Below are positions 427-62,698 of a DNA stretch of 64,000 nucleotides, piece by piece (position 1 is the first letter of the stretch; each line of letters opens with the position of its first letter). The stretch spans positions 2,080,001 through 2,144,000 of the forward strand of contig OY759746.1 in NCBI GenBank assembly GCA_963662795.1. The letters are read 5' to 3'. The notes beneath the pieces are model-generated. The model ran no database searches and had not been told where the DNA came from. It saw only the letters and a program-made list of their open reading frames with translations. The translations under genes were made by a program, and so were the position numbers. Origin of the DNA: Spirochaetia bacterium. GTDB taxonomy: Bacteria > Spirochaetota > Spirochaetia > CADAEX01.

Positions 427-618
427 GGATAACAGCGATTATTTCGCTGCGCTCCCTGTGGTCGCTTGGGCTCCTGCCAGTTGAGCTGGCAGATCGCCAT
501 ATTTTGCTTTCATAAAACCTGAACAACATGTGTTTTATGCTCTTCAAGTTTGTAAAAACTAAATAAATGTATTTTAGAGTTTAGCCACAAAACATCGAAT
601 AATCGCGGGACGTTATAG
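427..618 (+). repeat. Outer attC-like site 1, family A
   Basis: GGATAAC-AGCGATTATTTCG...CGAATAATCGCGGGAC-GTTATAG; full unit with flanking hairpins ~374-670. Confidence 0.9.
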
Positions 619-705
619 GCAATACCTCCGCGAAGAGGCGATCGCCCGGACCTCCGGCCCACGGGCGAGGATATGTAGGCAAAGAAAAAGTGCAAGGGAA
701 AACTC

Positions 706-1149
706 ATGGACGAATTAATAATTCGAAAACTTGAAGAGAAAGATTTAGAAGAATTATCACTTCTTTATAAACAGTTCTGGAATGAAGAATCGAATATTGA
801 AAAGATTAAGGTAAAATACCAAGAGATAAAGAATAATCCAAATTATATAATTTTATCAGCAGTTATTAATGGGAAAATTGTTGGTTCAATTTATGGTGTT
901 ATGTGTGAAGAATTATATGGATCATGCAGCCCTTTTCTTGTTATGGAAGATTTGATTGTTGATAAAAAAGTAAGAAGAAAAGGAATAGGCAAAGCATTAC
1001 TTGAAAAACTTGAAAACATAGGAAAAGCGAAGAGATGCAGCCAGATAATATTTATTACAGAAACAAACAGAGTTGATGCAGTTTCCTTTTATGAAAAAAT
1101 GGGTTTTAACTCAAAAACACATACTGGCTTTAAAAAACAATTGAATTAG
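706..1149 (+). CDS. GNAT family N-acetyltransferase
   Basis: Motif A LIVDKKVRRKGIGKALL and AVSFYEKMGF. Confidence 0.9.
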   Translation: MDELIIRKLEEKDLEELSLLYKQFWNEESNIEKIKVKYQEIKNNPNYIILSAVINGKIVGSIYGVMCEELYGSCSPFLVMEDLIVDKKVRRKGIGKALLEKLENIGKAKRCSQIIFITETNRVDAVSFYEKMGFNSKTHTGFKKQLN

Positions 1150-1188
1150 ATAATGGACAAAGGTAGAAAAAGGTATTATATTGTAAAA

Positions 1189-1204
1189 GTACGCTAAGGC
1201 GTAC
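1189..1204 (+). promoter_or_regulatory. Palindromic operator candidate of the YefM-YoeB module
   Basis: GTACGC-TAAG-GCGTAC just upstream of the antitoxin RBS. Confidence 0.55.
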
Positions 1205-1214
1205 GGAGGGGATT

Positions 1215-1457
1215 ATGGGTGCAATAAATATAACAAATGCAAGGAAAGATTTATATAATATAGTCAAAGCAGTGAATGATTCACATGAGCCAGTGATAAT
1301 TACTGGAAAAAACTCATCTGCAGTAATTGTAGGAGAGAGTGACTGGAGGAATATAGAGGAAACACTTTATCTTGTATCAATACCTGGAATGAGACAGTCA
1401 ATTCTTGATGGAATGAAAGAACCAATAGGAAAATTATCCGAAAAATTAGATTGGTAA
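1215..1457 (+). CDS. yefM: Phd/YefM family antitoxin
   Basis: N-terminal NITNARKDLYNIVKAV...PVIIT; overlaps toxin gene. Confidence 0.9.
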   Translation: MGAINITNARKDLYNIVKAVNDSHEPVIITGKNSSAVIVGESDWRNIEETLYLVSIPGMRQSILDGMKEPIGKLSEKLDW

Positions 1458-1720
1458 TTATGTACAAAGTCTTATTTACCAAGCAAGCACAGAAAGATGC
1501 AAAAAAGCTCTCATCATCGAATTTAAAAAAACAGGCACAAGAGATACTTGAGATATTAAAAGAAAACCCTTTTAAAGAATACCCACCCTATGAAAGATTG
1601 ATTGGGGATTTAACAGGAGCTTTTTCAAGACGAATAAATATCCAGCATAGAATAGTGTATCAGGTGTATGAGGAAGAAAAAATAGTAAAAGTAATCAGGA
1701 TGTGGACACACTACGAGTAA
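1451..1720 (+). CDS. yoeB: Txe/YoeB family toxin (start may be 1460)
   Basis: PPYERLIGDLTGAFSRRINIQHRIVY...WTHYE. Confidence 0.92.
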   Translation: MVIMYKVLFTKQAQKDAKKLSSSNLKKQAQEILEILKENPFKEYPPYERLIGDLTGAFSRRINIQHRIVYQVYEEEKIVKVIRMWTHYE

Positions 1721-1788
1721 TTAATAAGAAAAGAAGACGCCCAGCCCTTGGCGGTGCCGTGCGGGCTGGAAGACGCGGAGGTACATGC

Positions 1789-1980
1789 CTATAACAGCGA
1801 TTATTTCGCTGCGCTCCCTGTGGTCGCTTGGGCTCCTGCCAGTTGAGCTGGCAGATCGCCATATTTTGTTTTCATAAAACCGGAACAACATGTGTTTTAT
1901 GCTCTTCAAGTTTGTAAAAACCAAATAAAAGTATTTTAGAGTTTAGTCATAAAACATCGAATAATCGCGAGACGTTATAT
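1789..1980 (+). repeat. Outer attC-like site 2, family A
   Basis: CTATAAC...GTTATAT; unit ~1740-2033. Confidence 0.9.
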
Positions 1981-2075
1981 GCAATACCTCCGCGAAGAGG
2001 AAACCGCCCGGACCTCCGGCCAACGGGCGAAGATGCTTTTTAAAAAATTACTAAAAGACAAAAGAAGGAGATATT

Positions 2076-3740: not shown

Positions 3741-3794
3741 AAAAGTCCAGCCTTGGCGTTGCCGTGCGGCTTGGACAAGACGCGGAGGTACTGC

Positions 3795-3965
3795 ATATAA
3801 CATAGGATAAAGCGCTTCGCTCGGAGTACCTCGCTTGGCCTACGGCACACATCGTAGGTTTGATCTGCAACTTTTAAAAACAATAAGTTTTGGATAAAAA
3901 ATATTGTAACTTTGAAATACTAATTCTTTGCCTACGATGCGTCGCTTATCCTCGGGACGTTATAG
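3795..3965 (+). repeat. Outer attC-like site 3, family B
   Basis: ATATAAC-ATAGGATAAAGCG...CGCTTATCCTCGGGAC-GTTATAG; unit ~3745-4017. Confidence 0.88.
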
Positions 3966-4381
3966 GCAATACCTCCGCGAAGAGGAGATCGCCCGGACCT
4001 CCGGCCCACGGGCGAGAGAGTTTGAAAAATTGGATTTGTTTTGAAACAAAACATATTAAGGCAAATAATAAATGGATAAAAATATAGAGATTGAAGCGGA
4101 TAGAAGTATTCAAATAAGTAAAAAAGCCATATTTAAAGCAGAGAATAATTTTAAGATTAAAATACATGATAATGTTGTAGTTGAAGATTTTGTAGAAATA
4201 ATCGCAGATAAATCAGATTGTGAAATAAAAGATTCATTTATTGGAGAAGGATGTAGAGTAAGAAATAGTGTTGTCGAAAAAGTAATGGCTTTACCTGGAA
4301 GCCAGATACTTGAAACAACCATTAAGGTAGATGAAAAGAACAGGCAAACTGGGCTGTACTGACAATAGTGGACACGAATAT

Positions 4382-5550: not shown

Positions 5551-6205
5551 CGCTACCTTTCCTCTGGTTAGCTTAACATACCGTGTCCATCAAAGTCAGT
5601 ATAGTTCAAACTGGTTACAAGTATTTAATAGTGTTAAAGCCTGGATTAAATTATGATGAGAATAATTTTGCTTTTACAAGAGGAGCTGTAATTAAGAGAA
5701 TAAATGAGTTAAATCTAAATATGCCAATAGAAATACCAGTGGACATTGCCTTATTGAAAAGGAAGAATATTTTAAAATAAAAGAGAAAAACAAAAGAGAA
5801 ATAAAAATTTATAAAGAAGTAGAAGGAAAATATTTTATAATCAATTCCCAGTACTCTCATTCAGAAGCTTATGAGCAGTTTTATAATCCTGAGTATTTTA
5901 ACAAATACGAATACCTTGAAGATATAAATATACATGAATTAAAAGTTGCTGAAAATGAAATAATAATTGATCTAAAACAAATAAGAAAAGAAGAAGGAAG
6001 AAAGGATGTCGATGTTCAAAGAAAAATAAATGATATATTTTCTAAGTGTGTGAATTATAGAAAAATGATTTTTGTGATTGAAGAAAAAAAGATTCTAGTA
6101 GTTGAGTCGTAAACAATATAAGCAGAAGTATAAGAAAAGAAGCCTTGAAAAAGAAAGCCAGCCCTTGGCGGTGCCGTGCGGGCTGGAAGACGCGGAGGTA
6201 CATGC

Positions 6206-6378
6206 CTATAACAGAGGATAATTCGCTACGCTCGGAGTACCTCGCTTGGCCTGCGGCATATTTTACTATCATTTAAACCAGTCAATTTGAATATTATTTT
6301 TTTTAAGTATAGAAAACAGACAAAAAAAATATATAAAGTTTGTGCCGTAAAACATCGCTTATCCTCGGGACGTTATCT
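6206..6378 (+). repeat. Outer attC-like site 4, family B
   Basis: CTATAAC...GTTATCT; unit ~6158-6424. Confidence 0.88.
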
Positions 6379-6586
6379 GCAAAATCGCCCAAAGAGAATG
6401 AGCGTGCCGTCTTGGCACGCAAGATAATAATGATATATATTAATTTAACTTATTGGAGGATAATGTGGAAAAAATAAAGATTAAACAAGGGAAAGGGCCT
6501 GATTTTATTAAGTACTTTATTCCTATCCTTGAGGTTTTAAAATCACTTGGAGGTTCTGGAACACCTTCAGAAGTAATAGATTTAAT

Positions 6587-7861: not shown

Positions 7862-8715
7862 AGATTTAATAATAGATAAATATTCAATATCAGAAAAAGA
7901 ATTGGAGAAGAAGAATAAAAATGGCGGATTAACTGTTAAGAATAGAATTGCTTGGGCTAGATTTTATCTTGTAAAAGGCGGTGTCCTAGATTCGTCAAAA
8001 AAAGGAATATGGTTAATAAAAGATAATAGCTTTGAATTAAAGAATGAAGAAGAAGCACATACTTTTTTTAAAAAAGTACATGAAAAATACGAGAAAAAAA
8101 CTATTAGTGATAAACAAATAAAACTTGATATTGATGAAGAAATTGAAGAAAAAGTAAGTGATGAAGATTATAAAGAAGAAATGTTAAAGATATTAAAGAA
8201 TTTAACACCTTCAGGTTTTGAAAATATATGTAAAAGATTACTACGTGAATCAGGATTTACACAGGTAGTTGTTACCGGTCAATCAGGGGATGGTGGAATA
8301 GATGGTTATGGAGTGTTAGAAATAAATCCTTTAATGAGCTTTAAAGTATTATTTCAATCCAAACGCTATAAAGATGTAGTAAGCACAGATAAGGTAAGAG
8401 ATTTTAGAGGATCAATGGCTGGAAGAGCAGATAAAGGAATAATAATAACAACTGGCCGATTTACTCAAGATGCTAAAAATGAAGCAGTTCGAGATGGAGT
8501 TCCTCCAATAGAATTGGTAGATGGAGAAAAACTTGTAAACATGTTCGAAAAATTAGAGTTGGGAATAACTTCAAGAACTGTTTATGATATAGATTATACT
8601 TTTTTTGATGAATATAAATAGTGTGATTAATAATTTTAAAAATTATTGAGTTTAATAAATAAGAAAATTGCCTTCGCCATCCATGGCTTAGGCAATTAAG
8701 AATGGGCGATTCAGC

Positions 8716-8907
8716 AGATAACAGCGATTATTTCGCTGCGCTCCCTATGGTCGCTTGGGCTCCTGCCAGTTGAGCTGGCAGATCGCCATATTTTGTTTTC
8801 ATAAAACCGGAACAACATGTGTTTTATACTCTTCAAGTTTGTAAAAACCAAATAAAAGTATTTTAGAGGTTAGTCACAAAACATCGAATAATCGCGAGAC
8901 GTTATAC
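8716..8907 (+). repeat. Outer attC-like site 5, family A
   Basis: AGATAAC...GTTATAC; unit ~8666-8982. Confidence 0.9.
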
Positions 8908-9065
8908 GAAAAACCGCGCCAAGAGACTATAATTTCGCCCCGGGGAAACGGGGGAAAAGCCCGGCGTCCTGCCGGGCTTAAGAAATTGCGAAAAATATTA
9001 TTAAAAAGACTGGAAAAATAATAACTTGTCAGATGTGAAAATAATTGTGAAAATAATAAGAAAAA

Positions 9066-9724: not shown

Positions 9725-9873
9725 ATATTGAATTCATGCATTTTATAAAACCAAAAATATTAAAAAACCTAATTGTAAAAAAGAAAAAAGGAATAGAAAA
9801 GAATTTACCGCTTTCGCACGTCCTGTGCTCAAGCGAAGAGGGGCGAAATTAGGAGAAGAAGGCGCGGTTCATC

Positions 9874-10027
9874 GTATAACAGCGAATGACCGGTTCCGGC
9901 TGTTTCTAAGGAAACAGCCTCCACCCAAATTGCCGAAATAATACATGTTAAGAATAATGGAATAGAGTATAAACTTTTGGAGTGAAAAACACCATCGGCA
10001 ACTTCGGTCATTCGCGGGACGTTATCC
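9874..10027 (+). repeat. Outer attC-like site 6, family C
   Basis: GTATAAC-AGCGAATGACCG...CGGTCATTCGCGGGAC-GTTATCC; unit ~9809-10080. Confidence 0.88.
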
Positions 10028-10116
10028 ACAATATCATCGCAAGAGAACACCGCCCGGACCTCCGGCCAACGGGCGAAGAAAATAGAATCTGCTGTTTAAT
10101 ATACTTTATACAGAAC

Positions 10117-13924: not shown

Positions 13925-13997
13925 AACAAAAATAGAAACGGGGGAAGTCCGGCCTTGGCGTTGCCGTGCGGCCTGGACAAGAAGCGATGATACTGGT

Positions 13998-14166
13998 GGA
14001 TAACAGAGGATAATGCGCTTCGCTCCCTTTGGTCGCTTGGCCTGCGGCACACATCGTAGTGTTTGAACTACAACATTTATTAACAACGAGTTTTGAAAAA
14101 TATTATATAGCTTTGGAATATTCATTCTTGGACTACGATGCGTCGCTTATCCTCAGGACGTTATCC
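13998..14166 (+). repeat. Outer attC-like site 7, family B
   Basis: GGATAAC...GTTATCC; unit ~13947-14219. Confidence 0.88.
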
Positions 14167-14280
14167 ACAATATCATCGCAAGATGACACCGCCCGGACCT
14201 CCGGCCAACGGGCGAAGAGTAGAAAAAGACATAATGGTTAACCAATTAAACCGATACATTCAAAGAAAGCAGAGGAATAT

Positions 14281-15495: not shown

Positions 15496-15545
15496 TCCGG
15501 CCTTGGCATTGCCGTGCGGCCTGGACAAGAAGCGATGATACTGGT

Positions 15546-15737
15546 GGATAACAGCGATTATTTCGCTGCGCTCCCTGTGGTCGCTTGGGCTCCTGCCAGT
15601 TGAGCTGGCAGATCGCCATATTTTGTTTTCATAAAACCGGAATGACATGTGTTTTATGCTCTTCAAGTTTGTAAAAACCAAATAAAAGTATTTTAGAGTT
15701 TAGTCACAAAACATCGAATAATCGCGAGACGTTATCC
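15546..15737 (+). repeat. Outer attC-like site 8, family A
   Basis: GGATAAC...GTTATCC; unit ~15495-15789. Confidence 0.9.
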
Positions 15738-15830
15738 ACAATATCATCGCAAGAGAACGCCGCCCGGACCTCCGGCCAACGAGCGAAGATAGGAAATATA
15801 TTAACTTCAAAATTAAGGAACAAATAATTA

Positions 15831-17185: not shown

Positions 17186-17275
17186 TTTATACAGGCAATT
17201 TTTATATAATTTAATAAACATTAGTCCGGCCTTGGCGTTGCCGTGCGGCCCTGGACAAGAAGCGATGATACTGGT

Positions 17276-17449
17276 GGATAACAGCGGTTGAAGCACTACG
17301 CTCGGATTACCTCGCTTGGCCTTCGGCAAACATCGTAGGATTTGAACTACAACTTTTAGAAACATTAAGTTTTTGAAAGACAATAAATAAAAGCATTGAG
17401 TATTCTATTCTTGGTCTACGATGCTTCGCTTAACCGCGGGACGTTATCC
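17276..17449 (+). repeat. Outer attC-like site 9, family D
   Basis: GGATAAC-AGCGGTTGAAGC...GCTTAACCGCGGGAC-GTTATCC; unit ~17224-17501. Confidence 0.88.
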
Positions 17450-17537
17450 ACAATATCATCGCAAGAGACCATCGCCCGGACCTCCGGCCAACGGGCGAAG
17501 AAAATGTGATCATTTGTAAATATATTTATACATAGAA

Positions 17538-18880: not shown

Positions 18881-18949
18881 AAATAGAAACGGGGGAAGTC
18901 CGGCCTTGGCGTTGCCGTGCGGCCTTGGACAAGAAGCGATGATACTGGT

Positions 18950-19141
18950 GGATAACAGCGATTATTTCGCTGCGCTCCCTTTTGGTCGCTTGGGCTCCTG
19001 CCAGTTGAGCTGGCAGAGCGCCATATTTTGTTTTTATAAAACCAGAACAACATGTGTTCTATGCTTTTTATGTTTGAAAAATCAAATAAATGTATTTTAG
19101 AGTTTAACCACAAAACATCGAATAATCGCGAGACGTTATCG
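18950..19141 (+). repeat. Outer attC-like site 10, family A
   Basis: GGATAAC...GTTATCG; unit ~18898-19194. Confidence 0.9.
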
Positions 19142-19236
19142 GCAATGGCTGGGCGAAGAGAACACCGCCCGGACCTCCGGCCCACGGGCGAAGAAAATAT
19201 TAAAACCAAAACAATTATTAAATTAAAGGAAGTAGA

Positions 19237-20266: not shown

Positions 20267-20350
20267 ACTCTGGTATAACAAAGTACTTGGAATAGAAGAA
20301 GTCCGGCCTTGGCGGTGCCGTGCGGCCTGGACAAGACGCCCAGCCACAGC

Positions 20351-20504
20351 CGATAACAGCGAATGACCGGTTCCGGCTGTTTCTAAGGAAACAGCCTCCA
20401 CCCAAATTGCCGAAATAATACATGTTAAGAATAATGGAATAGAGTATAAACTTTTGGAGTGAAAAACACCATCGGCAACTTCGGTTATTCGCGGGACGTT
20501 ATTT
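20351..20504 (+). repeat. Outer attC-like site 11, family C
   Basis: CGATAAC...GTTATTT; unit ~20301-20557. Confidence 0.88.
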
Positions 20505-20725
20505 GCAATACCTTCGCGAAGAGAAAATCGCCCGGGCCCCTGGCCGACGGGCGAGGATGTGCAGGATAATAATGGTATATGTTGAATAGATACTTTAGGT
20601 GTGTGAAAACAGGTATTATCTAAATAAATACATAAAAGGCTTCTGATAGTTTAATGTGTTACCTGTTGATATAAACCAAAAAATGAACTATATTTAATAA
20701 TATAATGGTTCATTTGGAGGTTTAT

Positions 20726-21375: not shown

Positions 21376-21506
21376 GGAAATTGTCCAATTACTGCTTCAA
21401 TAGAGTCAACACTTTGCTTTTTATAGGTTAAGAAAGTATTAAAAAGAAAAGGAAGTCCAGACCTTGGCTCCGCCCTAACGGCCTGGACAAGACGCGAAGG
21501 TACTGC

Positions 21507-21679
21507 AAATAACAGAGGATAATTCGCTACGCTCGGAGTACCTCGCTTGGCCTTCGGCATATTTTGCTATCATTAAAACAGTTCATATTATGTTTTTACT
21601 CTATTTAAATATATTTCTTAAAAACTATCCTGTTGAAAAAGGTTTTAGCAAAACATCGCTTATCCTCAGGACGTTATTT
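21507..21679 (+). repeat. Outer attC-like site 12, family B
   Basis: AAATAAC...GTTATTT; unit ~21455-21732. Confidence 0.88.
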
Positions 21680-21916
21680 GCAATACCTTCGCGAAGAGAA
21701 AATCGCCCGGGCCCCTGGCCGACGGGCGAGGAATACAGTGTAAAGGATTAGAGAATGTTTGAAATCAGGAAGTTTTATAAAGAAAAAGATCTTAATGATT
21801 TACTATTTGTAATTCAGGAATCATTTTTAACTGTCGCTAAAGATTTTAATCTGACAAAAGAAAATGCTCCAACAAATCCGGCATTTATAACAATGGATAA
21901 ATTAAAAGAATCAATT

Positions 21917-23684: not shown

Positions 23685-23752
23685 TAAGAAAGGATAAAAA
23701 GTCCAGACCTTGCCTCCGGCCTATCGGTCAGGACAAGACGCGAAGGTACTGC

Positions 23753-23945
23753 AAATAACAGCGATTATTTCGCTGCGCTCCCGATGGTCGCTTGGGCTCC
23801 TGCCAGATGAGCTGGCAGATCGCCATATTTTGTTTTAATAAAACTGGAACAACATGTATTCTATGCTTTTTAAGTTTGAAAAAATTTAAATAAAAGTATT
23901 TTAGAGTTTAGCCACAAAACATCGCATAATCGCGAGACGTTATAA
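23753..23945 (+). repeat. Outer attC-like site 13, family A
   Basis: AAATAAC...GTTATAA; unit ~23701-23997. Confidence 0.9.
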
Positions 23946-24095
23946 GCAATGTTCCCGCAAGAGGAAATCGCCCGGACCTCCGGCCGACGGGCGAGGAAAT
24001 AAAAATTGCTGTATGATATAATTTATGTACGAGATAAATAATTTTCTTATCATCTTATTGTACTACTGACGCCTTCGGCGTAAAAGAGATAAAAA

Positions 24096-25034: not shown

Positions 25035-25129
25035 TCGAACAACTTGTACAGGTAGAGTAATTGTCTGACAATTAAAGAAGTCCGGCCTTGGCTCCGCCGT
25101 ACGGCCTGGACAAGAAGCGGGAACACTGC

Positions 25130-25284
25130 TTATAACAGCGAATGGCCGGTTTCGGCTGTTTCTGAAAAAACCAGCCTCAACCCAAATTGCCGGAATAAAT
25201 AGTGGTACAGATTGATGAATACAAAATAAGCTTAAAGGGTAACAAATAACAACGGCAACTTCGGTCATTCGCGGGACGTTATAG
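25130..25284 (+). repeat. Outer attC-like site 14, family C
   Basis: TTATAAC...GTTATAG; unit ~25080-25337. Confidence 0.88.
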
Positions 25285-25388
25285 GCAATACCTCCGCGAA
25301 GAGAAGATCGCCCGGACCTCCGGTCAACGGGCGAGGAAGTATCTTTTTATGATAACTGATAATTGATAATGTAAATAAAGATAATATT

Positions 25389-27138: not shown

Positions 27139-27241
27139 TTTTTTTAAAAATAAAAAATAGCTATCAATTAAATTCAATTGTTTAAAGAAAGTTCAGCCCT
27201 TGGCGTTGCCGTGCGGGCTGAACAAGACGCGGAGGTACTGC

Positions 27242-27395
27242 CTATAACAGCGAATGACCGGTTCCGGCTGTTTCTAAGGAAACAGCCTCCACCCAAATTG
27301 CCGAAATAATACATGTTAAGAATAATGGAATAGAGTATAAACTTTTGGAGTGAAAAACACCATCGGCAACTTCGGTCATTCGCGAGACGTTATAC
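27242..27395 (+). repeat. Outer attC-like site 15, family C
   Basis: CTATAAC...GTTATAC; unit ~27191-27471. Confidence 0.88.
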
Positions 27396-27562
27396 GAAAA
27401 ATCGCGCCAAGAGGCTATAATTTCGCCCCTAGGAAACAGGGGAAAAGCCCGGCGTCCTGCCGGGCTTAAGAAATGATTTTACAGATATTACACATTAAAA
27501 GTATTGAAAAAATAATAAAAAGTGTGTATAATAAAAGAAAGTAATACACATGGAGAAGAAAT

Positions 27563-28146: not shown

Positions 28147-28262
28147 AAAAGAAAAAAATATTAATAATATTTAACTAAAGATACCTTGAAAAGACCCACT
28201 TTCGCACGTCCTGTGCTCAAGCGAAGAGGGGCGAAATTAGGAGGAAGACGGCGCGGTTCATC

Positions 28263-34142: not shown

Positions 34143-34256
34143 ACAATATCATCGCAAGATGACACCGCCCGGACCTCCGGCCAACGGGCGAAGAGTAGAA
34201 AAAGACATAATGGTTAACCAATTAAACCGATACATTCAAAGAAAGCAGAGGAATAT

Positions 34257-35471: not shown

Positions 35472-35521
35472 TCCGGCCTTGGCATTGCCGTGCGGCCTGG
35501 ACAAGAAGCGATGATACTGGT

Positions 35522-35693
35522 GGATAACAGCGGTTCAAGCGCTGCGCTCGGAGTACCTCGCTTGGGCTTCGCCACATTTTACTTTTATTTAATCCAGGAA
35601 ACATCTATTTTATAGTTTTCAAGTTTAGCAATACGTTTAAATGGGTTTTTAAGTTTTTACCGTAAAACGTCGCTTAACCGCAGGACGTTATCC
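35522..35693 (+). repeat. Outer attC-like site 20, family D
   Basis: GGATAAC-AGCGGTTCAAGC...GCTTAACCGCAGGAC-GTTATCC; unit ~35471-35738. Confidence 0.88.
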
Positions 35694-35781
35694 ACAATGC
35701 CCCGCCAAGAGAAGCGCGTGCCGTCCTGGCACGCAAGAATATAGAAAACAATTATTAAAAATGTAAGAAAGAGGAATTAAA

Positions 35782-36915: not shown

Positions 36916-36970
36916 GAAAAGGAGAATCAAGCTGCCGTCCATGGCAGCTTGATTAAGGCGGGGCACTGGT

Positions 36971-37140
36971 GGATAACAGAGGATAATGCGCTTCGCTCCC
37001 TTTGGTCGCTTGGGCTTCGCCACACATCGTAGGTTTTGAACAACAACTTTTTGAAACTACACTTTTGAAAGAAAAATAATACAACTGTTAGAAAATTATA
37101 CTTGTTCGACGATGCGTCGCTTATCCTCGGGACGTTAGCA
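36971..37140 (+). repeat. Outer attC-like site 21, family B
   Basis: GGATAAC...GTTAGCA; unit ~36925-37192. Confidence 0.88.
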
Positions 37141-37257
37141 GCAATACGTCCCCAAGAGGACACCACCCGGACCTCCGGCCAACGGGCGAGGATAGGTGGT
37201 AAGAATATTTTATCTAAAAACAATTGAAATTAAATAAAATTATTAATGGTAGCAACT

Positions 37258-38539: not shown

Positions 38540-38643
38540 AAAACAGTTAAAATAATTTTAAGGAAAACAATAAAGGTGGAGAGAATAGAAGAAGTCCGGC
38601 CTTGGCGTTGCCGTGCGGCCTGGACAAGAAGGGGACGTACAGC

Positions 38644-38835
38644 TGCTAACAGCGATTATTTCGCTGCACTCCCTGTGGTCGCTTGGGCTCCTGCCAGTTG
38701 AGCTGGCAGATCGCCATATTTTGTTTTCATAAAACCGGAACAACATGTGCTTTGTGCTCTTCAAGTTTGTAAAAACCAAATAAAAGTATTTTAGAGTTTA
38801 GTCACAAAACATCGAATAATCGCGAGACGTTATCC
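38644..38835 (+). repeat. Outer attC-like site 22, family A
   Basis: TGCTAAC...GTTATCC; unit ~38594-38887. Confidence 0.9.
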
Positions 38836-38924
38836 ACAATGCCCCCACAAGATGCGATCGCCCGGACCTCCGGCCGACGGGCGAGGATATACAGTATAAA
38901 TAATATATGTTAGCTTGATGTTTC

Positions 38925-40472: not shown

Positions 40473-40853
40473 TAATGATATATTTTCAGGACAAGGATTT
40501 ACATTGAAATTAGATAACAATAGATATTTCGTATTACGAGAATATTATGGTTCTGGAGTCGATGTTGCCTGTAGAATTTTGTACGATGTTAATCTTGTTT
40601 CAGATTATCAAATAGATTTTGATAAAATCAATCATATGTCAAGTAAGCAGAATGTTGAAGATGATAAATTTATTTTACGGATAGAAAATGATGAGGTGGA
40701 ACTTTTCATTAATGGTTTACAGATTGAAATTGTAAATAAAATTGAATTAGTAAATACCCTAAAATGTATAAATAAATCTTACTAATAAACACTGGTAAGG
40801 AAGTCCGGCCTTGGCTCCGCCGTACGGCTAGGACAAGAAGTGGGGGCACTGGT

Positions 40854-41024
40854 GGATAACAGAGGATAATGCGCTTCGCTCCCTTTGGTCGCTTGGGCTT
40901 TGCCACACATCGTAGGTTTTAAACTACACCTTCTATAAAAAACAAGTTGTAGAAGAGAAATATTGCAACTTCTAAATATTCATTCTTGGTCTACGATGCG
41001 TCGCTTATCCTCGGGACGTTATGC
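40854..41024 (+). repeat. Outer attC-like site 23, family B
   Basis: GGATAAC...GTTATGC; unit ~40803-41077. Confidence 0.88.
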
Positions 41025-41156
41025 TCAATACCAGCCGCAAGAAGAGATCGCCCGGACCTCCGGCCAACGGGCGAAGATGAAGAATAATAAATAAGAATTA
41101 TATTGATTCAAATTAGTACAATATTATAGCATTAGATATATAATTAACGAGGGTCA

Positions 41157-41822: not shown

Positions 41823-41889
41823 TTTAAGAAAAAAGAAGTCCGGCCTTGGCGTTGCCGTGCGGCCTGGACAAGAAGCGGCTGGTACTGGA

Positions 41890-42060
41890 GCATAACAGAG
41901 GATAATGCGCTACGCTCCCTATGGTCGCTTGGGCTTCGCCACACATCGTAGGTTTTGAACTACAACTTCTATAAACAATTAGTTTTGGAAGAAAAATATT
42001 GCAACTTTTAGATATTAATACTTTGGCTACAATGCGTCGCTTATCCTCAGGACGTTATTT
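41890..42060 (+). repeat. Outer attC-like site 24, family B
   Basis: GCATAAC...GTTATTT; unit ~41838-42113. Confidence 0.88.
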
Positions 42061-42275
42061 GCAATACCTTCGCGAAGAGAAAATCGCCCGGGCCCCTGGC
42101 CGACGGGCGAGGATTTGCAGTAAAATATGTTTTAGGCGGATGCTTTTGACGTGCAAGAACAGATATTATCTAAATAAATACATAAAAGTCTTCTGATAGT
42201 TTGATGTGTTACTTGTTGAAATAAACCAAAAAATGAACTATATTTGATAAATAATGGTTCATTTAGGAGTTTTAT

Positions 42276-42925: not shown

Positions 42926-43047
42926 GTAAATTGTCCAATTACTGATTCAACTCTTTGCTTTTTACAGGTTAAGTAAGTATTAAAAAGAAAAGGAAGTCCA
43001 GCCCTTGGCTCCGCCCTAACGGTCTGGACAAGACGCGAAGGTACTGC

Positions 43048-43239
43048 AAATAACAGCGATTATTTCGCTGCGCTCCCGATGGTCGCTTGGGCTCCTGCCA
43101 GTTGAGCTGGCAGATCGCCATATTTTGTTTTCATAAAACCGGAACAACATGTGCTTTGTGCTCTTCAAGTTTGTAAAAACCAAATAAAAGTATTTTAGAG
43201 TTTAGTCACAAAACATCGAATAATCACGAGACGTTATAA
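43048..43239 (+). repeat. Outer attC-like site 25, family A
   Basis: AAATAAC...GTTATAA; unit ~42996-43291. Confidence 0.9.
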
Positions 43240-43316
43240 GCAATGTTCCCGCAAGAGAAAACCGCCCGGACCTCCGGCCGACGGGCGAGGAAAGCATAAT
43301 CTGCTTTATACATAAA

Positions 43317-45380: not shown

Positions 45381-45450
45381 AATTAAAAAAAGAAAGAAGT
45401 CCAGCCTTGGCTCCGCCGTGCGGCTTGGACAAGAAGCGGCTGGTACTGGA

Positions 45451-45624
45451 GCATAACAGAGGATAATTCGCTGCGCTCGGATTACCTCGCTTGGCCTGCG
45501 GCATATTTTACTATCATATAAATGATAATAATTGATAATTATCCTTTTTATATTTTGTTAATCAAACACAAGAGATTTCTATAGTTCGAGCCGTAAAACA
45601 TCGCTTATCCTCAGGACGTTCTCC
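45451..45624 (+). repeat. Outer attC-like site 26, family B
   Basis: GCATAAC...GTTCTCC; unit ~45399-45676. Confidence 0.87.
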
Positions 45625-45866
45625 GAAATACCGCCCCAAGATGCGATCGCCCGGACCTCCGGCCCACGGGCGAGGGAAGACGGGCAAACAATTGTGTCTA
45701 ATTTTAAATCAAAAGTATCTTATCAGCATTAAAGGATTAGAATAATTAATCTAATGTAAAGAATGCTAAATAAATCTCAATAAATTATATTGAAATTAAA
45801 AAGATGTATTGTATATTAAGAGTTTTAAGTGTATACTGTTGAGTGTATACTTAAAGAGGTTGAATT

Positions 45867-46486: not shown

Positions 46487-46539
46487 AACGCCCAAGCCTT
46501 GGCGGTGCCGTGCGGCTTGGAAGAGAGGGGCGGTACTTC

Positions 46540-46710
46540 CGAGAACAGAGGATAAAGCGCTTCGCTCCCTCTGGTCGCTTGGGCTTCGCCACACATCGTA
46601 GGTTTTGAACTACAACATTTATAAACAACAAGTGTTGGAAGAAGAATATTGCAGCTTTGAAATATTCATTCTTAGGCTACGATGCGTCGCTTATCCTCGG
46701 GACGTTATGC
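46540..46710 (+). repeat. Outer attC-like site 27, family B
   Basis: CGAGAAC...GTTATGC; unit ~46491-46784. Confidence 0.87.
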
Positions 46711-46926
46711 GAAAGACTGGCCGAAGAGGAATAGGCTGGGGCGGGGGAGAGGAAGACGCCGCCGCACATCGTGTGCGGCGAAGAAAAAGCTCATAAACTG
46801 TGATTTTTATAAGCTGTAAGTCTATTTTTATGAATTACCATTATTCAAACGAAAAATAAATATAAATATCATTTAAAGCAGTTCCTTTCGTATCATTTGA
46901 TTATGGATTGGGCAAATGATAAAATA

Positions 46927-47530: not shown

Positions 47531-47692
47531 TATTAAAATACAAAGTGCTTGATTCTAAGGTTGTCAGTAAAGTTATTTAAAAATATATCTACCTGGGTGG
47601 AATATATCTGATTAGTGTAATATTCACCGTCTCACACATCCCTGTGTTCGACGAAGACCGCCCCCAGCCTATTCCTCTTCGGCCAGCCCATC

Positions 47693-47846
47693 GCATAACA
47701 GCGAATGGCCGGTTTCGGCTGTTTCTGAAAAAACCAGCCTCAACTCAAATTGCCGGAAAAATAGTGGTACAGATTGATGAATATAAAATAAGCTTGAAAG
47801 GTAACAAATAACAGCGGCAACTTCGGTCATTCGCGGGACGTTATAC
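47693..47846 (+). repeat. Outer attC-like site 28, family C
   Basis: GCATAAC...GTTATAC; unit ~47628-47899. Confidence 0.88.
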
Positions 47847-47979
47847 GTAATGGCCAGGCAAGAGAAAACCGCCCGGACCTCCGGCCGACGGGCGAGGATA
47901 TAGTATTTAAATGAGTTTATAAGTTATATAAAGATAAAAGTTGTAATATAAGTGCAATTTATTAAAAAGGTGGATTAAT

Positions 47980-50389: not shown

Positions 50390-50480
50390 ATTTACCAACT
50401 AGAATAAATGCTGGTAATTGATTGTTTTTAGTCCAGCCTTGGCTCCGCCGTACGGCTTGGACAAGAAGCCTGGCCACTAC

Positions 50481-50651
50481 GTATAACAGAGGATAAAGCG
50501 CTACGCTCGGAGTACCTCGCTTGACCTGCGGCACACATCGTAGGATTTGAACTTCAACATCTAGAAACAACCAGTTTTGAAAGAATAATAAAACAGCTTT
50601 GAATATCAATGCTTATCTTACGATGCGTCGCTTATCCTCAGGACGTTATGT
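50481..50651 (+). repeat. Outer attC-like site 29, family B
   Basis: GTATAAC...GTTATGT; unit ~50431-50704. Confidence 0.88.
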
Positions 50652-50749
50652 GCAATGAGCCCGACAAGAAAAAGACGCCCGGACCTCCGGCCGACGGGCG
50701 AAGAGGTTAACTAAATTAAGGATTTTTACAGTATAATTAATTCTGATAT

Positions 50750-51508: not shown

Positions 51509-51575
51509 TAATTTAATGAATTATGAAGAATCCAGACCTAACTCCGTTGAACGGTCTGGATGTCGGGCTCAAAGC

Positions 51576-51767
51576 ACATAACAGCGATTATTTCGCTGCG
51601 CTCCCTATGGTCGCTTGGGCTCCTGCCAGTTGAGCTGGCAGATCGCCATATTTTGTTTTCATAAAATCGGAACAGCATGTGTTTTATGCTTTTCAGATTT
51701 GATAAAACCAAAAAACCGTATTTTAGAGTTTAATCACAAAACATCGAATAATCGCGAGACGTTATAC
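51576..51767 (+). repeat. Outer attC-like site 30, family A
   Basis: ACATAAC...GTTATAC; unit ~51530-51817. Confidence 0.9.
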
Positions 51768-51922
51768 GCAAAAAGCTAGCGAAGAAGGAGAATGAGCTCG
51801 GGCGTCCTGCCCGAGCAATAATTAATTGTAACTTAAAGTATAGATAATACCTGTTGAAACTGTCTTTTGAAACAAAATAACAGCCTCTTGACATGGTATA
51901 TAAAAGGTATAATAATTATATC

Positions 51923-52886: not shown

Positions 52887-52941
52887 AAGAATATAGTCAA
52901 GTTCGCCGTCCATGGCTCACTTGAGGACGCGAGCTTTCAGC

Positions 52942-53114
52942 GTATAACAGCGGTTCAAGCGCTTCGCTCGGAGTACCTCGCTTGGCCTTCCGGCAAACAT
53001 CGTAGTGTTTAAGCTACAACTTTTAGAGACAACACGTTATGAAAGAAAATAATAACACCTTTGTGTTTTATAATCTTGGCCTACGATGCTTCGCTTAACC
53101 GCGGGACGTTATAA
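52942..53114 (+). repeat. Outer attC-like site 31, family D
   Basis: GTATAAC...GTTATAA; downstream hairpin split by an IS. Confidence 0.88.
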
Positions 53115-53201
53115 GCAATGTTCCCGCAAGAGAAAACCGCCCGGACCTCCGGACGCCCTATGTGTCAACATAGTTGAAGCACCAATATGGAGGTTTCAAT
53201 T

Positions 53202-55910: not shown

Positions 55911-55971
55911 CAAAAGAAAAAGTCCAGCCTTGGCTCCGCCGTACGGCTTGGACAAGAAGCGGGAACACTGC

Positions 55972-56163
55972 TTATAACAGCGATTATTTCGCTGCGCTCC
56001 CGATGGTCGCTTGGGCTCCTGCCAGTTCAACTGGCAGATCGCCATATTTTGTTTTCATAAAACTGGAACAACATGTATTTTATGCTTTTCGAGTTTTAAA
56101 AAACTAAATAAAAGTATTTTAGAGTTTAGCCACAAAACATCGAATAATCGCGAGACGTTATAC
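55972..56163 (+). repeat. Outer attC-like site 32, family A
   Basis: TTATAAC...GTTATAC; unit ~55922-56281. Confidence 0.9.
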
Positions 56164-56441
56164 GAAAAACCGCTTTGCAGTTATTTTTATTTGTTATAAA
56201 ATAAAAAATGAAACAATTCTTTATTAATTACGCCCCCTCCCCCCAGGAACCAAGAAAGCCCGGCGTCCTGCCGGTCTTAAGCTATAATTAGATTTTATTG
56301 AAAATAAAGTGTTAAATTGTTAAATAAATATAAAAGATGTTTTGGTGTTAAAATAATAAAAGAATTAAAAATAAATAATGAATTGAATAATATTGTAAAG
56401 GAATTAGAAAATTAAGCATTAAAAAAATAAGGATAGGTTAG

Positions 56442-56915: not shown

Positions 56916-57027
56916 TAAAAGGAATGAAAGCAGAAGAGGAGATTTCGCCTTCGCACGTCCTGTGCTATGGCGAGGATGGGGGGAGCGTAATTAGGATCGA
57001 ACTGATTAGTGTAAAGCGCGGTTCATC

Positions 57028-57181
57028 GTATAACAGCGAATGGCCGGTTGAGGCTGTTTCTGAAAAACCAGCCTCAACCCAAATTGCCGGAATAAATAGT
57101 GGTACAGATTGTTGAATACAAAATAAGCTTGAAAGGTAACAAATGACAGCGGCAACTTCGGTCATTCGCGGGACGTTATAC
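57028..57181 (+). repeat. Outer attC-like site 33, family C
   Basis: GTATAAC...GTTATAC; unit ~56945-57233. Confidence 0.88.
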
Positions 57182-57372
57182 GTAATGGCCAGGCAAGAGA
57201 AAATCGCCCGGACCTCCGGCCGACGGGCGAGGATATGCAATATTGTAATATTTGCTATGTGTTATTATGAAGAAAAATAGTTTCAAAACGTACCTTATTG
57301 GTTCATAAAATAGAAAATGAACTATAAAAGTACAATTGACAAAAATAGAACCGATAAGGTACAATATAGATC

Positions 57373-58775: not shown

Positions 58776-58877
58776 ACATTTTATAAATAGTGACAATTGG
58801 GGCAATTATCTAACATTCGACATTTTAGTCCAGCCTTGGCTCCGCCGTGCGGCCTGGACAAGAAGCCTGGCCACTAC

Positions 58878-59069
58878 GTATAACAGCGATTATTTCGCTG
58901 CGCTCCCTGTGGTCGCTTGGGCTCCTGCCAGTTGAGCTGGCAGATCGCCATATTTTGTTTTCATAAAACCGGAACAACATGTGTTTTATGCTCTTCAAGT
59001 TTGTAAAAACCAAATAAAAGTATTTTAGAGTTTAGTCACAAAACATCGAATAATCGCGAGACGTTATCC
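58878..59069 (+). repeat. Outer attC-like site 34, family A
   Basis: GTATAAC...GTTATCC; unit ~58828-59120. Confidence 0.9.
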
Positions 59070-59251
59070 ACAATGCCCCCACAAGAGAAACCGCCCGGAC
59101 CTCCGGCCGACGGGCGAAGAAAAAAAGTACAATGTAAAAAAGTTCTGTATTAACCAGCCTGCTACCAAATTATATATTCTAAAATATTTTTCCATAAAAA
59201 ATCTTGATTAGCAATATAAAATAAGACTCCAGCATTGATATAATAAATGTA

Positions 59252-59867: not shown

Positions 59868-59956
59868 TATAATATGCAAGTAAAATATTAATCAGGTAAA
59901 GAAGTCCGGCCTTGGCTTCCAGCCGTGCGGCCTGGACAAGAAGTGGGGGCACTGGT

Positions 59957-60126
59957 GGATAACAGCGGGTAAGAAGCTACGCTCCCTTCGGTCGCTTGGG
60001 CTTCGCCATATTTTGCTTTCAAACAACAAGATGAATTATTGTTATGTCTTTTCAATCTAATTAATTTAGACAAATAAGTAATATAGTTTTAGCCGCAAAA
60101 CATCTTTTACCCGCTGGACGTTATAT
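59957..60126 (+). repeat. Outer attC-like site 35, family E
   Basis: GGATAAC-AGCGGGTAAGAAG...CTTTTACCCGCTGGAC-GTTATAT; unit ~59904-60224. Confidence 0.87.
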
Positions 60127-60894
60127 GCAATACCGCTTAACTGTTTATGGATTGAGATGAATAGTTTTCAATTGTGCAAACATTCCCATGCCCAAGAAAA
60201 GCCCGGCGTCCTGCCGGGCTTAAGAAAAAAGGACGGTTTAAAAAATAGATTATACTATTTTAATAAAATACTATTTAAAAATAGATAATAGAAATAAAAA
60301 CGCAAAAAAAGTAAACCTGAAAAACCTTTTAAAAAAGGTTGTAGCTGAATAAAAAGATCAAATATTTTAAAGCAAATATACTTTTACAAATATAACCAAT
60401 AAATTGTATTTGACAAAAATTGAAATTAATTAAGAACGGGCAAAAAAGACTGATTTTTAAGTTTAAATTTGTAAATATTGTAACTTATTATGGATTGATT
60501 TCAAAAAGGAAAAAATACTCTTAGATATTTATTATTTTAGTTTTGATACTTAATCTTAAAAGAAAAAAGAAGAATTACAGGCCAACAATTAAGAATTGTT
60601 TTGTAGTTAAAGTGCTAGCAGCTTTAGACTGAAGGAAAAAATATGCAAAATCGTGATCGTAAAATGCAAGCAAAGCAATAGATTTTCAGAGAAAAATAGA
60701 TATGAAGAAATGACAATATTTTTAAAATACAATTAAAAAATATTACTATATCCAGAGTACTGTAAATAAAAACTATAAAGAAAACGTCCGAATAGGGGAA
60801 TTCACCCCGTTTACGCCGTCCTGGCTTCAACGGGAAGAGGGCATGGGAAAAAAAGGCAAAAAGACTGTAAAAGAATTGCGGTACTGCACATAAC
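60120..60894 (+). other. ORF-less cassette
   Basis: Complementary ends present; no + strand ORF of 60 aa or more. Confidence 0.8.
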
Positions 60895-61059
60895 AGCGGT
60901 TCAAGCGTTTCGCTCGGAGTACCTCGCTTGGCCTACGGCAAACATCGTAGGGTATTTACTACTCCTGTTGGGAACAACACTGTTCAAGAGAGAGAAAGTT
61001 TATCTTAATGTTAAATAATCTTTATCTACGATGCTTCGCTTAACCGCGGGACGTTATAT
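60888..61059 (+). repeat. Outer attC-like site 36, family D
   Basis: ACATAAC...GTTATAT; unit ~60806-61110. Confidence 0.88.
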
Positions 61060-61147
61060 GCAATACGACCCCAAGAGAAATCGCCCGGACCTCCGGCCCA
61101 CGGGCGAAGAAAAGATGATTTACTGTATAATACACTCTATATATAAA

Positions 61148-61181
61148 ATATATAGTTTTCTAGTTATTTAATATGTTATCT
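61148..61181 (+). other. Cassette-internal attI-like landing site (carrier 6)
   Basis: ATATATAGTTTTCTAGTTATTTAATAT-GTTATCT. Confidence 0.72.
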
Positions 61182-61233
61182 TCACAACATCATATGCAAG
61201 CCTTGTACATGAGAGCTTTATAGTGTACAATAT

Positions 61234-62370
61234 ATGTGCAAATATGTACATGACGGTGGTGAAATGAATAATAAACCCAATAATGGATTACCTTTACTCC
61301 CTCCAAAAGAAAAATTAGAAAATATTACAGTGTTACGAAAAGCAATAAAAGCTAATACAGAATTGGCAAAACTGAATGGGTATTGCTCTACAATCCCCAA
61401 TGAAAACATTTTGTTGAATGCAATAATACTAAATGAAGCAAAAACCAGCTCAGAAATAGAGAATATAATCACTACTCATGATGAAATTTACAAAGCATTA
61501 CTAAAAAAAGACGGAAAATATGATCCTGAAACGAAAGAAGTATTAAATTATAGAGAAGCAATATGGCAGGGTTATAATTTAATAACAGAGACTAATATTC
61601 TAACTACAAATACAATTGTTAGAATTCAAGAAACGCTGGAAAAAAATAAGGCTGGAATAAGAAAATTACCTGGAACGAAATTAATGAATGATCAAACCGG
61701 TGAAGTAATATATACACCTCCAGATGATGAGAAAATTATAAGAGATTTATTAAGAAATCTTGAAGAATACATCAATATTGATGATGAGATAGATCCGCTA
61801 ATAAAACTTGCAATAATTCATTATCAGTTTGAATCTATACATCCTTTTTATGATGGAAACGGCAGAACTGGAAGAATTATTAATGTTTTATACCTTGTAT
61901 TAAAGGGATTGTTGAAATCTCCAATACTTTATTTGAGTAGTTATATAATAAAAAACAAAGGAAATTATTATAATTATCTGCAGAAAGTAAGAAATGAAAA
62001 TGACTGGGAAAGCTGGGTAATGTTTATGTTGGAGGCTGTAGAAAAAACTTCATTAGAAACATTAAGTACTGTAAAAGCAATTAGAGATTTGATGGAAGAA
62101 ACAATTGAATATTGCAGAGAAAAAATGTCAAAATCAAGTTATTCAAAAGAATTAATTGAATTGCTTTTTGTTCAACCTTATACAAAAATTGATTTTCTGG
62201 TGAATAACAATATTGCTGAAAGAAGAACTGCAAGTAAATATTTATCGCAGCTGGAAGAACTTGGAGTGTTAGAATCATTTAAATCCTGGAAAGAAAAAAT
62301 ATATATAAATAAAAAATTATATAAACTATTAAGAGGATCAGAAGATAACAAAAAATTGGAGCAGATTTGA
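61234..62370 (+). CDS. Fic family protein (start may be 61264)
   Basis: EAKTSSEIEN, HYQFESIHPFYDGNGRTGR. Confidence 0.93.
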   Translation: MCKYVHDGGEMNNKPNNGLPLLPPKEKLENITVLRKAIKANTELAKLNGYCSTIPNENILLNAIILNEAKTSSEIENIITTHDEIYKALLKKDGKYDPETKEVLNYREAIWQGYNLITETNILTTNTIVRIQETLEKNKAGIRKLPGTKLMNDQTGEVIYTPPDDEKIIRDLLRNLEEYINIDDEIDPLIKLAIIHYQFESIHPFYDGNGRTGRIINVLYLVLKGLLKSPILYLSSYIIKNKGNYYNYLQKVRNENDWESWVMFMLEAVEKTSLETLSTVKAIRDLMEETIEYCREKMSKSSYSKELIELLFVQPYTKIDFLVNNNIAERRTASKYLSQLEELGVLESFKSWKEKIYINKKLYKLLRGSEDNKKLEQI

Positions 62371-62448
62371 TTTTTGTCATGTAAATTGCGAAAGCAATTT
62401 ACATGACAACCCTGCGGGACAATCGAGCAGCTCAATTTGGCGTTAGCT
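62343..62448 (+). repeat. Inner canonical attC
   Basis: AGATAAC-AAAAAA-TTGGAGC...GCTCAA-TTTGGC-GTTAGCT; GAAGATAAC is the reverse complement of GTTATCTTC at 61175. Confidence 0.85.
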
Positions 62449-62526
62449 ATACTGGAATATTTAGAAAAGAGGAAAAGTCCGGCCTTGGCGGTGCCGTGCG
62501 GCCTGGACAAGAAGGGGTCGTACTGT

Positions 62527-62698
62527 ATATAACAGAGGATAATTCGCTACGCTCGGAGTACCTCGCTTGGGCTTCGCCATATTTTGCTTTCAAACAAACA
62601 GAAGAATATTATTTTTATTCTTTTCAAGTTTTAAAAAAAAGACAAATGAGAATTATAGTTTTAGATGCAAAACATCTTTTACCCGCGGAACGTTCTCC
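62527..62698 (+). repeat. Outer attC-like site 37, chimeric family B left arm / family E right arm
   Basis: ATATAAC-AGAGGATAATTCG...CTTTTACCCGCGGAAC-GTTCTCC; unit ~62477-62748. Confidence 0.82.

Follow-up and report, generated by a model that had tools for sequence, protein, structure and literature searches.

The 64,000-nucleotide stretch analysed here (the window) comprises positions 2,080,001–2,144,000 of contig OY759746.1 (assembly GCA_963662795.1) from a Spirochaetia bacterium, and it is filled by a single co-oriented array of gene cassettes separated by folded recombination sites that resemble the attC sites of integrons. The subject of our analyses was the pairing of the two ends of each cassette with one another and its relation to the recombinase of the array. 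The window has a GC content of 32% and the array extends past both its ends, occupying contig positions 1,848,874–2,179,988, which is 331 kb with 186 sites (one false site was removed before counting) and 8.4% of the 3.93-Mb genome; its GC content is 31.3%, versus 41.7% and 40.2% in the flanks. To our knowledge, this places it among the largest cassette arrays known. Thirty-seven attC-like sites were mapped in the window, all on the + strand, and these bound 36 complete cassettes. The window sites measure 141–180 nt from the C of AAC to the G of GTT and fall into three or four core classes, and over the whole array the distance between boxes is 133–181 nt. Each site consists of a left box ending in ATAAC, one unpaired A, the L'' half of an inner stem, a long loop region, the L' half of that stem, five unpaired bases (GNGAC) and a right box beginning with GTTAT, with a one-base bulge in L'' in one core class. 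The elements that define a folded integron site (R''/R' boxes, an L''/L' stem and an unpaired spacer) were present in all 37 window sites and all 186 array sites, with the pairing of L checked, and a search of the window against Rfam at gathering thresholds returned no family match. Cassettes have a median length of 1363 nt and a maximum of 5864 nt.

The pairing of cassette ends is real and strongly non-random. The 5' end of each cassette, read from the G of GTT, was compared with the sequence up to and including the next AAC, taken as its reverse complement. In the resulting alignments the cassette's own ends matched in 35 of the 36 complete window cassettes, the same count as in an earlier sequence-only reading of the window, whose three example end pairs were also recovered (Table 1; the second number of each was the last base of the 3' half). 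When all partners were ranked, the own partner came first for 29 cassettes, second or third behind near-identical variable parts (barcodes) for six, and failed for one (43233–45457). The diversity of ends was greater than the about 18 sequences noted earlier, as there are 22 distinct 5' 21-mers among the 37 ends of the window. Energies were calculated for the whole array as DNA duplexes over the 19 nt beyond the constant GTTAT/ATAAC, with a threshold of -12 kcal/mol. That threshold was reached by the own ends of 171 of 185 cassettes, as opposed to 48 of 186 cases when the two halves flanking one in-array site were paired and 9.5% of all other pairings. The comparison of own with shuffled ends, proposed earlier as a check, gave a mean of -15.7 kcal/mol for own ends versus -7.06 kcal/mol in 2000 partner shuffles (sd 0.23, best -8.00), so that the shuffles never came near the own value. 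Two of the 14 array cassettes that missed the threshold lie in the window: 56157–57034 (-11.6 kcal/mol), whose 5' half ends after 17 nt, and 43233–45457 (-6.8 kcal/mol). The latter carries a minus-strand DDE transposase gene (43369–44526) of the same family as one in cassette 6372–8722, and its chimeric ends may have arisen by rearrangement caused by that insertion sequence.

The anatomy of the stem was resolved by an analysis of columns restricted to distinct end pairs (63 used of 71 distinct combinations), with the G of GTT as position 1. The stem is 20 bp long and GC-rich in its outer half. Positions 1–3 are invariant GTT and positions 4–5 nearly invariant, while positions 6–9 and 12–20 are variable and co-varying, with three or four Watson–Crick pair types per column, and are paired in 58–63 of the 63 end pairs; pairing stops at position 21 (20/63). 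Position 10 is always A, which is paired in 46 end pairs and stands against T of the reverse-complemented partner in 17. Position 11 is likewise always A at the 5' end and forms a Watson–Crick pair in none of the 63, its reverse-complemented partner being G in 62. This mispair is an A.C on the coding strand and a T.G wobble on the bottom strand, where the 20-bp helix runs unbroken with one T.G wobble. The internal loop of 1–3 nt described in the sequence-only reading thus proved to be a single fixed mispair at position 11, which is at times joined by a second mismatch at position 10 or by a one-base bulge. The motif AAGA follows the 5' half in 170 of 185 cassettes, including 35 of the 37 window ends, where it had already been noticed, and it precedes the 3' half in 161 of 185.

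Further conserved elements lie inside the cassettes next to the stem. A conserved GC-rich hairpin begins about 10 nt past the 5' arm (e.g., window 640–668) and was found by pattern in 157 of 185 cassettes, with 159 matches to the pattern that are all on the forward strand. A second conserved GC-rich hairpin precedes the 3' arm in most cassettes; the pattern for its main class undercounts (10 and 16 of 185), and counts were therefore based on folds. Minor cassette classes have other hairpin stems, yet a GTCC loop is common to both of their ends, and one minor class has an extra paired block of 12 nt further out. In addition, an AT-rich leader of about 70 nt follows the 5' hairpin in cassettes with unrelated genes (10080–10150, 17500–17572, 30090–30160, 31530–31600 and 61110–61180, in the cassettes starting at 10021, 17443, 30032, 31470 and 61053, respectively) and looks like a common promoter or operator region.

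The sequence-only reading held that every cassette has its own barcode, which is correct in that the ends match within a cassette but overstated in that only 39 classes of the variable part exist among the 185 cassettes, the commonest comprising 39 cassettes with mostly unrelated genes. Adjacent cassettes have the same barcode class in 45 instances, versus 14.9 expected (sd 3.4, maximum 30 in 2000 shuffles), and it is because of such neighbours that 48 of the 186 in-array sites can form the stem.

For each of the 185 cassettes, the circular junction (own 3' end, core and own 5' end) and the in-array junction were folded with DNA parameters. On the bottom strand the circular junction was more stable than the in-array junction by a median of 13.2 kcal/mol, the gain being at least 5 kcal/mol in 127 cassettes and absent in 51. 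Of the two strands, the bottom one gave the more stable fold in 174 of 185 circular junctions and in 153 of 185 array junctions, and in the fold of cassette 25278–27248, as an example, its outer helix is continuous over ~20 bp with the wobble included. These results support the view that both ends are parts of a single cassette and come together only once it has been excised as a circle. Contigs from four sequencing runs, which break at repeats, yielded only joints and loose ends in repeated modules that cannot be assigned, and they are silent on excision or circles.

The movement of cassettes was traced through pairs with homologous interiors (identity of 85% or more across 80% or more of the length), of which there are 43; the pairs are not independent, as some represent one gene family. 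They are dispersed without synteny, and both barcodes are identical in all 43, i.e., the barcodes travel with the gene. For the downstream core, identity reaches 90% or more in 15 pairs, lies at 80–89% in 4 and falls below 80% in 24, and for the upstream core it is at least 90% in 1 and 85–88% in 3. In pairs 39/154 and 117/135, the identical stretch starts at GTT, covers gene, AAC and core, and ends at the next GTT. This loss of identity right after GTT on both sides indicates that the crossover is at or next to G|TT, as in integrons. In pairs 40/161, 46/102 and 163/175, whose interiors are 100% identical, identity instead ends 2–4 nt past AAC, and in pair 13/92 the upstream core moves with the gene.

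The array starts beside a co-oriented gene for a tyrosine recombinase of 339 aa. The best family match of this protein is of the XerA type (214.5 bits, cut-off 220), and it matches the integron-integrase model NCBIfam TIGR02249 with 200 bits (cut-off 265) in two pieces, with ~41 residues missing within model positions 173–229. When aligned with two true IntI proteins from this phylum, the recombinase and a relative with 54% identity both lacked the integron-specific insertion. By sequence, the best solved relatives of the recombinase are IntI4 (2A3V) and an archaeal Xer-like protein (4A8E). Since the adjacent recombinase is Xer-like and without the IntI insertion, the system is not a classical integron. 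The matching half of the first cassette begins 150 nt past the recombinase stop codon, which probably marks the docking site. A promoter-like stretch ahead of that site and the bases immediately preceding the crossover are, as judged by eye, shared with a relative having 79% identity. A small attC-like hairpin lies directly after the recombinase stop codon (contig 1847802–1847951). Elsewhere in the genome, 1.4 Mb from the array and beside insertion-sequence genes, is a frameshifted IntI-like gene (contig 412371–413302; 175.8 and 195.7 bits in two frames).

The nearest relatives of the recombinase, with 79% and 54% identity, are from Spirochaetia metagenome bins, and further relatives (~37–49% identity) occur in many Bacteroidota, one Calditrichota and one candidate-phylum genome. 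In the locus of the 54% relative every cassette has own-end pairing of 15–17 nt with A against G at position 11. The family was scanned more broadly in 80 loci fetched with their recombinase, using exact 15-nt GTT...AAC inverted ends with one position free, which replaced a generic energy scan for inverted ends whose output was mostly noise. With position 11 free there were 76 hits (72 A/G, 2 G/A in apparently reversed arrays, 1 T/T and 1 C/C), as compared to 5, 2, 4, 3 and 3 hits with position 9, 10, 12, 13 or 14 free, respectively. The 72 A/G hits are spread over 24 loci of Spirochaetia and Bacteroidota and have cores of ~110–185 nt and ends of 15 (45 hits), 16 (3), 17 (17), 18 (4) or 19 nt (3). 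The recurrence of the mispair in 24 loci makes it a hallmark of the recombinase family. Among the loci examined, the arm is longest in this genome (20 bp versus 15–19 nt), and, relative to integron-like arrays of Bacteroidota with Xer-like recombinases, the array differs also in the GC-rich outer half of its stem, in the AAGA motifs and conserved hairpins flanking it, in its spirochaete host and in being far larger.

The cassette ends are probably the two halves of a long outer (R) arm for the recombinase that is complete only in the excised circle, with the T.G wobble marking the folded strand and the full site of the circle favouring capture over loss. A crossover at G|TT divides the arm and leaves its 3' half on the far side, as the 5' end of that cassette. 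An arm split in this manner is whole only if excision has joined both ends in a circle, or by chance next to a neighbour of the same class. The binding arms of tyrosine recombinases are ~11–13 bp long, and the inner arm of the sites may resemble Xer binding arms. The paired ends could represent such an arm for a recombinase monomer, which would need a duplex of at least ~11 bp; the sequence of the arm would be free, with pairing and one wobble kept, over a length of ~15 bp in the relatives and 20 bp here. At base pair 11 the wobble would be one helical turn from the cut, and it may tell the recombinase which strand is folded, replacing the extrahelical bases that in classical attC sites are read by IntI, through the domain absent here, and set strand choice (Nivina et al. 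2016, PMC5027507). The free circle would then present a full site and the array weakened ones, a difference by which capture is favoured over loss and which fits with a very large, stable array.

Several of our results weigh against this explanation. The stem forms anyway in the 48 array sites noted above, and 51 of the 185 cassettes gain nothing in folding from circularisation. The barcodes are common to many unrelated genes, and a barcode therefore does not identify a gene. The 43 homologous pairs at non-syntenic places represent cassettes that have left array sites, which means that the weakened sites still work. Own-end pairing of 11–12 nt in five cassettes of a true integron array (see below) indicates that the extension is partly a matter of degree and in part not special to the Xer-like family. 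Finally, the 24 downstream cores with less than 80% identity and the identity that ends 2–4 nt past AAC point to a second exchange point at the other end of the core, which is not explained by a strictly bottom-strand, R'-only reaction. Homologous recombination within the conserved 3' modules could account for that exchange point, as could top-strand recombination or a second strand-exchange pair between folded sites.

A more far-reaching reading, which we put forward tentatively as it is rather doubtful, is that gene bodies and hairpin cores are independently exchangeable modules. In contrast to IntI, the Xer-like enzyme may perform both strand-exchange pairs on two folded sites, or act on either strand, and so swap cores without genes, while the own-end 20-bp arm and its wobble alone would give a site of full strength and serve as a one-way valve for capture. 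If this reading were true, the array would represent a separate, ancient lineage of cassette recombination on single strands that exists alongside integrons in spirochaetes and Bacteroidota.

Comparisons with true integrons came from a control search of 301 genomes of the same phylum, including this one, in which 29 had an integrase above the family cut-off. In three IntI arrays (genomes G205, G065 and G215; integrases >490 bits) with sites of ~65 bp, own-end pairing stops at 7–8 nt in the 50 cassettes, and beyond GTT their own ends average -4.64 kcal/mol versus -4.12 kcal/mol for other ends. A fourth IntI array (G264:C16:287800–291413; integrase 375 bits) has own-end pairing of 11–12 nt in five of five cassettes and no mispair. 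The arrays beside the IntI genes of G210, G258 and G108 were unrecognisable to our simple site finder and were left out of this control. The assertion that classical cassettes pair mainly over R''/R' is hence in agreement with the 50 cassettes of the first three arrays but not with the five of the fourth. The arm of 15–20 bp with a fixed wobble is absent from the true integron arrays examined. As in the present array, the variable portion of the R box is here a property of the cassette and agrees with the cassette's own AAC box; unlike in the present array, pairing ends at 7–8 or 11–12 nt and lacks the fixed mispair. Cassettes in the IntI arrays of G205, G065 and G215 also start with a short GC-rich hairpin just past the R' box.

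The array shares many features with classical and sedentary chromosomal integrons, namely co-oriented cassettes of one or few genes, folded AAC/GTT sites with an L stem and an unpaired spacer, a crossover apparently at G|TT, a putative docking site beside the recombinase gene, a favoured bottom-strand fold, a bottom strand that is the leading-strand template, and cassettes with toxin–antitoxin and defence-type genes. Cumulative GC skew, which has its minimum at 1.38 Mb and its maximum at 3.42 Mb, underlies the strand assignment, and Loot et al. (2017, PMC5371416) describe the largest chromosomal integrons as likewise having the bottom strand as leading-strand template. In contrast to classical integrons, the recombinase of the array is without the IntI insertion, the sites have a 20-bp outer arm with a fixed T.G wobble, and the cores are often exchanged independently of genes. 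The sites are also larger, as their 133–181 nt between boxes exceed the 57–141 bp given for whole attC sites in PMC5027507 and PMC5371416. The site design differs from that of classical integrons and seems to be undescribed in print: full-text literature searches returned no account of extended end pairing or of the mispair, and the passages of PMC8138268 examined contained nothing relevant, whereas the supplementary figure and files of preprint 10.1101/471110, which we have not seen, may show motifs.

That preprint concerns the rAID-1 clusters of gut Bacteroidales, which reach ~16 kb and 31 genes and are recognised by a 5' XerD-like recombinase >44% identical to that of Bacteroides fragilis, co-directional genes, a GC content of at most 41% and repetitive intergenic sequences. 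The array is similar in its co-directional genes, in its 31.3% GC relative to the richer flanks and in its intergenic repeats, and the nearest non-spirochaete relatives of its recombinase (37–49% identical) are in Bacteroidota. It is, however, far bigger than any cluster reported there, and the passages of 10.1101/471110 examined include no site structure, end pairing or mispair.

Xer/dif (pdif) modules have double-stranded 28-bp sites with two inverted 11-bp arms and alternate in orientation. A module of this type was ruled out, as the array sites are hairpin-forming, have 133–181 nt between boxes and are all in direct orientation.

The inverted ends might also be a footprint of how cassettes are made, an idea raised in the sequence-only reading that has some support, with genes placed into pre-existing shells of half arms and hairpins and the ends merely inherited, without a present role. 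One barcode class does flank 39 of 185 cassettes although only 43 pairs of bodies are homologous array-wide, and cassettes with unrelated genes share the arm, the 5' hairpin (157 of 185) and in a subset the ~70-nt leader, with 3' ends that are similarly conserved. Without selection, however, 39 classes would not stay Watson–Crick in 58–63 of 63 end pairs per column with position 11 mispaired in all 63, and this mispair has also been retained in Bacteroidota relatives with recombinases of ~40% identity. We consider it unlikely that the ends are such a footprint, which can, nevertheless, be compatible with their being the arm of the recombinase.

Still less probable, in our estimation, is long-range pairing of the ends inside a single-stranded array, whereby a perfect outer arm would form beside each flanking core and excision would use full sites. 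The two halves are on one strand at a distance of 0.5–5.9 kb, an all-paired fold would alternate gene-body stems with core stems, and cassettes do leave array sites. Against such pairing, the bottom strand as leading-strand template is rarely single-stranded over kilobases, and the lengths of the cassettes show no limit.

A role in RNA, in which the 5' and 3' untranslated ends of the cassette transcript would pair for processing or stability, is very improbable even though genes are mostly on the + strand and GC-rich hairpins are present on both sides of the stem. On the coding strand the A.C mispair breaks the RNA helix and the wobble is on the antisense strand, the top strand folds worse in 174 of 185 cassettes (DNA parameters), the stem begins exactly at the crossover base, and cassettes with their longest reading frame on the - strand still have matching ends. 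Transposon-like terminal inverted repeats, or a by-product of duplicated cassettes and chance, are scarcely credible: the GTT...AAC inverted ends recall a small transposon and many cassettes are duplicated, but the ends directly adjoin conserved hairpin cores within an array that is strictly co-oriented and starts beside a tyrosine recombinase, the pairing holds on distinct end pairs with shuffled partners never near the observed value, and the transposases of the window are insertions inside cassettes.

Integrons serve as the textbook example of recombination on folded single strands, and what defines their integrase is an additional domain by which flipped-out bases are read. In the present case, a recombinase without the IntI domain heads a huge array whose sites use another structural code, a long arm and a fixed wobble, and this design leads to testable predictions on the choice of strand and partner. 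Software designed around IntI and classical attC sites may, as our results suggest, overlook arrays of this kind. Furthermore, the array offers a natural set of orthogonal hairpin sites, and the independent exchange of its cores bears on the old question of how cassette and site are assembled.

Table 1. Cassette junctions and transposase genes in the window. Each junction comprises the 3' arm half of one cassette, the hairpin core (AAC to GTT) and the 5' arm half of the next cassette; coordinates are window positions.
Feature	Coordinates	Strand	AAC	GTT	Remarks
Junction 1	414..631	+	433	612	3' half of cut-off first cassette; 5' half of cassette 612-1795
Junction 2	1776..1993	+	1795	1974	
Junction 3	3782..3978	+	3801	3959	
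Junction 4	6193..6391	+	6212	6372	5' half is first example of the sequence-only reading
Junction 5	8703..8920	+	8722	8901	3' half 8703-8722 pairs with 6372-6391
Junction 6	9861..10040	+	9880	10021	Cassette class with third paired block, 12 nt, further out
Junction 7	13985..14179	+	14004	14160	
Junction 8	15533..15750	+	15552	15731	
Junction 9	17263..17462	+	17282	17443	
Junction 10	18937..19154	+	18956	19135	
Junction 11	20338..20517	+	20357	20498	
Junction 12	21494..21692	+	21513	21673	
Junction 13	23740..23958	+	23759	23939	
Junction 14	25117..25297	+	25136	25278	
Junction 15	27229..27408	+	27248	27389	Folded as circular and in-array junction for cassette 25278-27248
Junction 16	28250..28430	+	28269	28411	
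Junction 17	29872..30051	+	29891	30032	
Junction 18	31292..31489	+	31311	31470	
Junction 19	33958..34155	+	33977	34136	
Junction 20	35509..35706	+	35528	35687	
Junction 21	36958..37153	+	36977	37134	5' half is second example
Junction 22	38631..38848	+	38650	38829	
Junction 23	40841..41037	+	40860	41018	
Junction 24	41877..42073	+	41896	42054	
Junction 25	43035..43252	+	43054	43233	Start of sole non-matching cassette
Junction 26	45438..45637	+	45457	45618	GTTCT at GTT
Junction 27	46527..46723	+	46546	46704	GAGAAC at AAC
Junction 28	47680..47859	+	47699	47840	
Junction 29	50468..50664	+	50487	50645	5' half is third example
Junction 30	51563..51780	+	51582	51761	
Junction 31	52929..53127	+	52948	53108	
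Junction 32	55959..56176	+	55978	56157	5' half stops after 17 nt
Junction 33	57015..57194	+	57034	57175	
Junction 34	58865..59082	+	58884	59063	
Junction 35	59944..60139	+	59963	60120	
Junction 36	60875..61072	+	60894	61053	
Junction 37	62514..62711	+	62533	62692	GTTCT at GTT
Transposase gene	4382-5245	-			Inside cassette; transposases are of rve and DDE_Tnp_1 types
Transposase gene	6686-7843	+			Inside cassette
Transposase gene	21969-22931	+			Inside cassette
Transposase gene	39458-40420	-			Inside cassette
Transposase gene	43369-44526	-			Inside cassette
Transposase gene	53660-54736	+			Inside cassette

The cassettes contain one to four genes each, mostly on the + strand, and the first cassette of the array has a PIN-type toxin gene. 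In a family search, 17 of 20 tested proteins matched a family, including a GNAT acetyltransferase, AIPR, an Mrr-type nuclease, a UvrD-type helicase with zinc ribbons, an AbiU2-like HEPN protein, an AAA_13 ATPase, Fic, DUF3644, a CoiA-like protein, an alcohol dehydrogenase, a family-3 glycosidase and the six transposases of inserted elements. Two displaced fragments of the array, each with a 3' module, a core and the start of a 5' arm, lie outside it on the minus strand (contig 2344559–2344718 and 2489626–2489784), and no matching 5' half was found within 8 kb of these inverted fragments. Several cassettes of window 31500–37450 are carried by contigs of a sediment metagenome (run X4) at ~90–99% identity. 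A sample with the same organism label (X5) has ~5% of the sampled words of window 24000–33900, and cassette content therefore appears to differ between strains.

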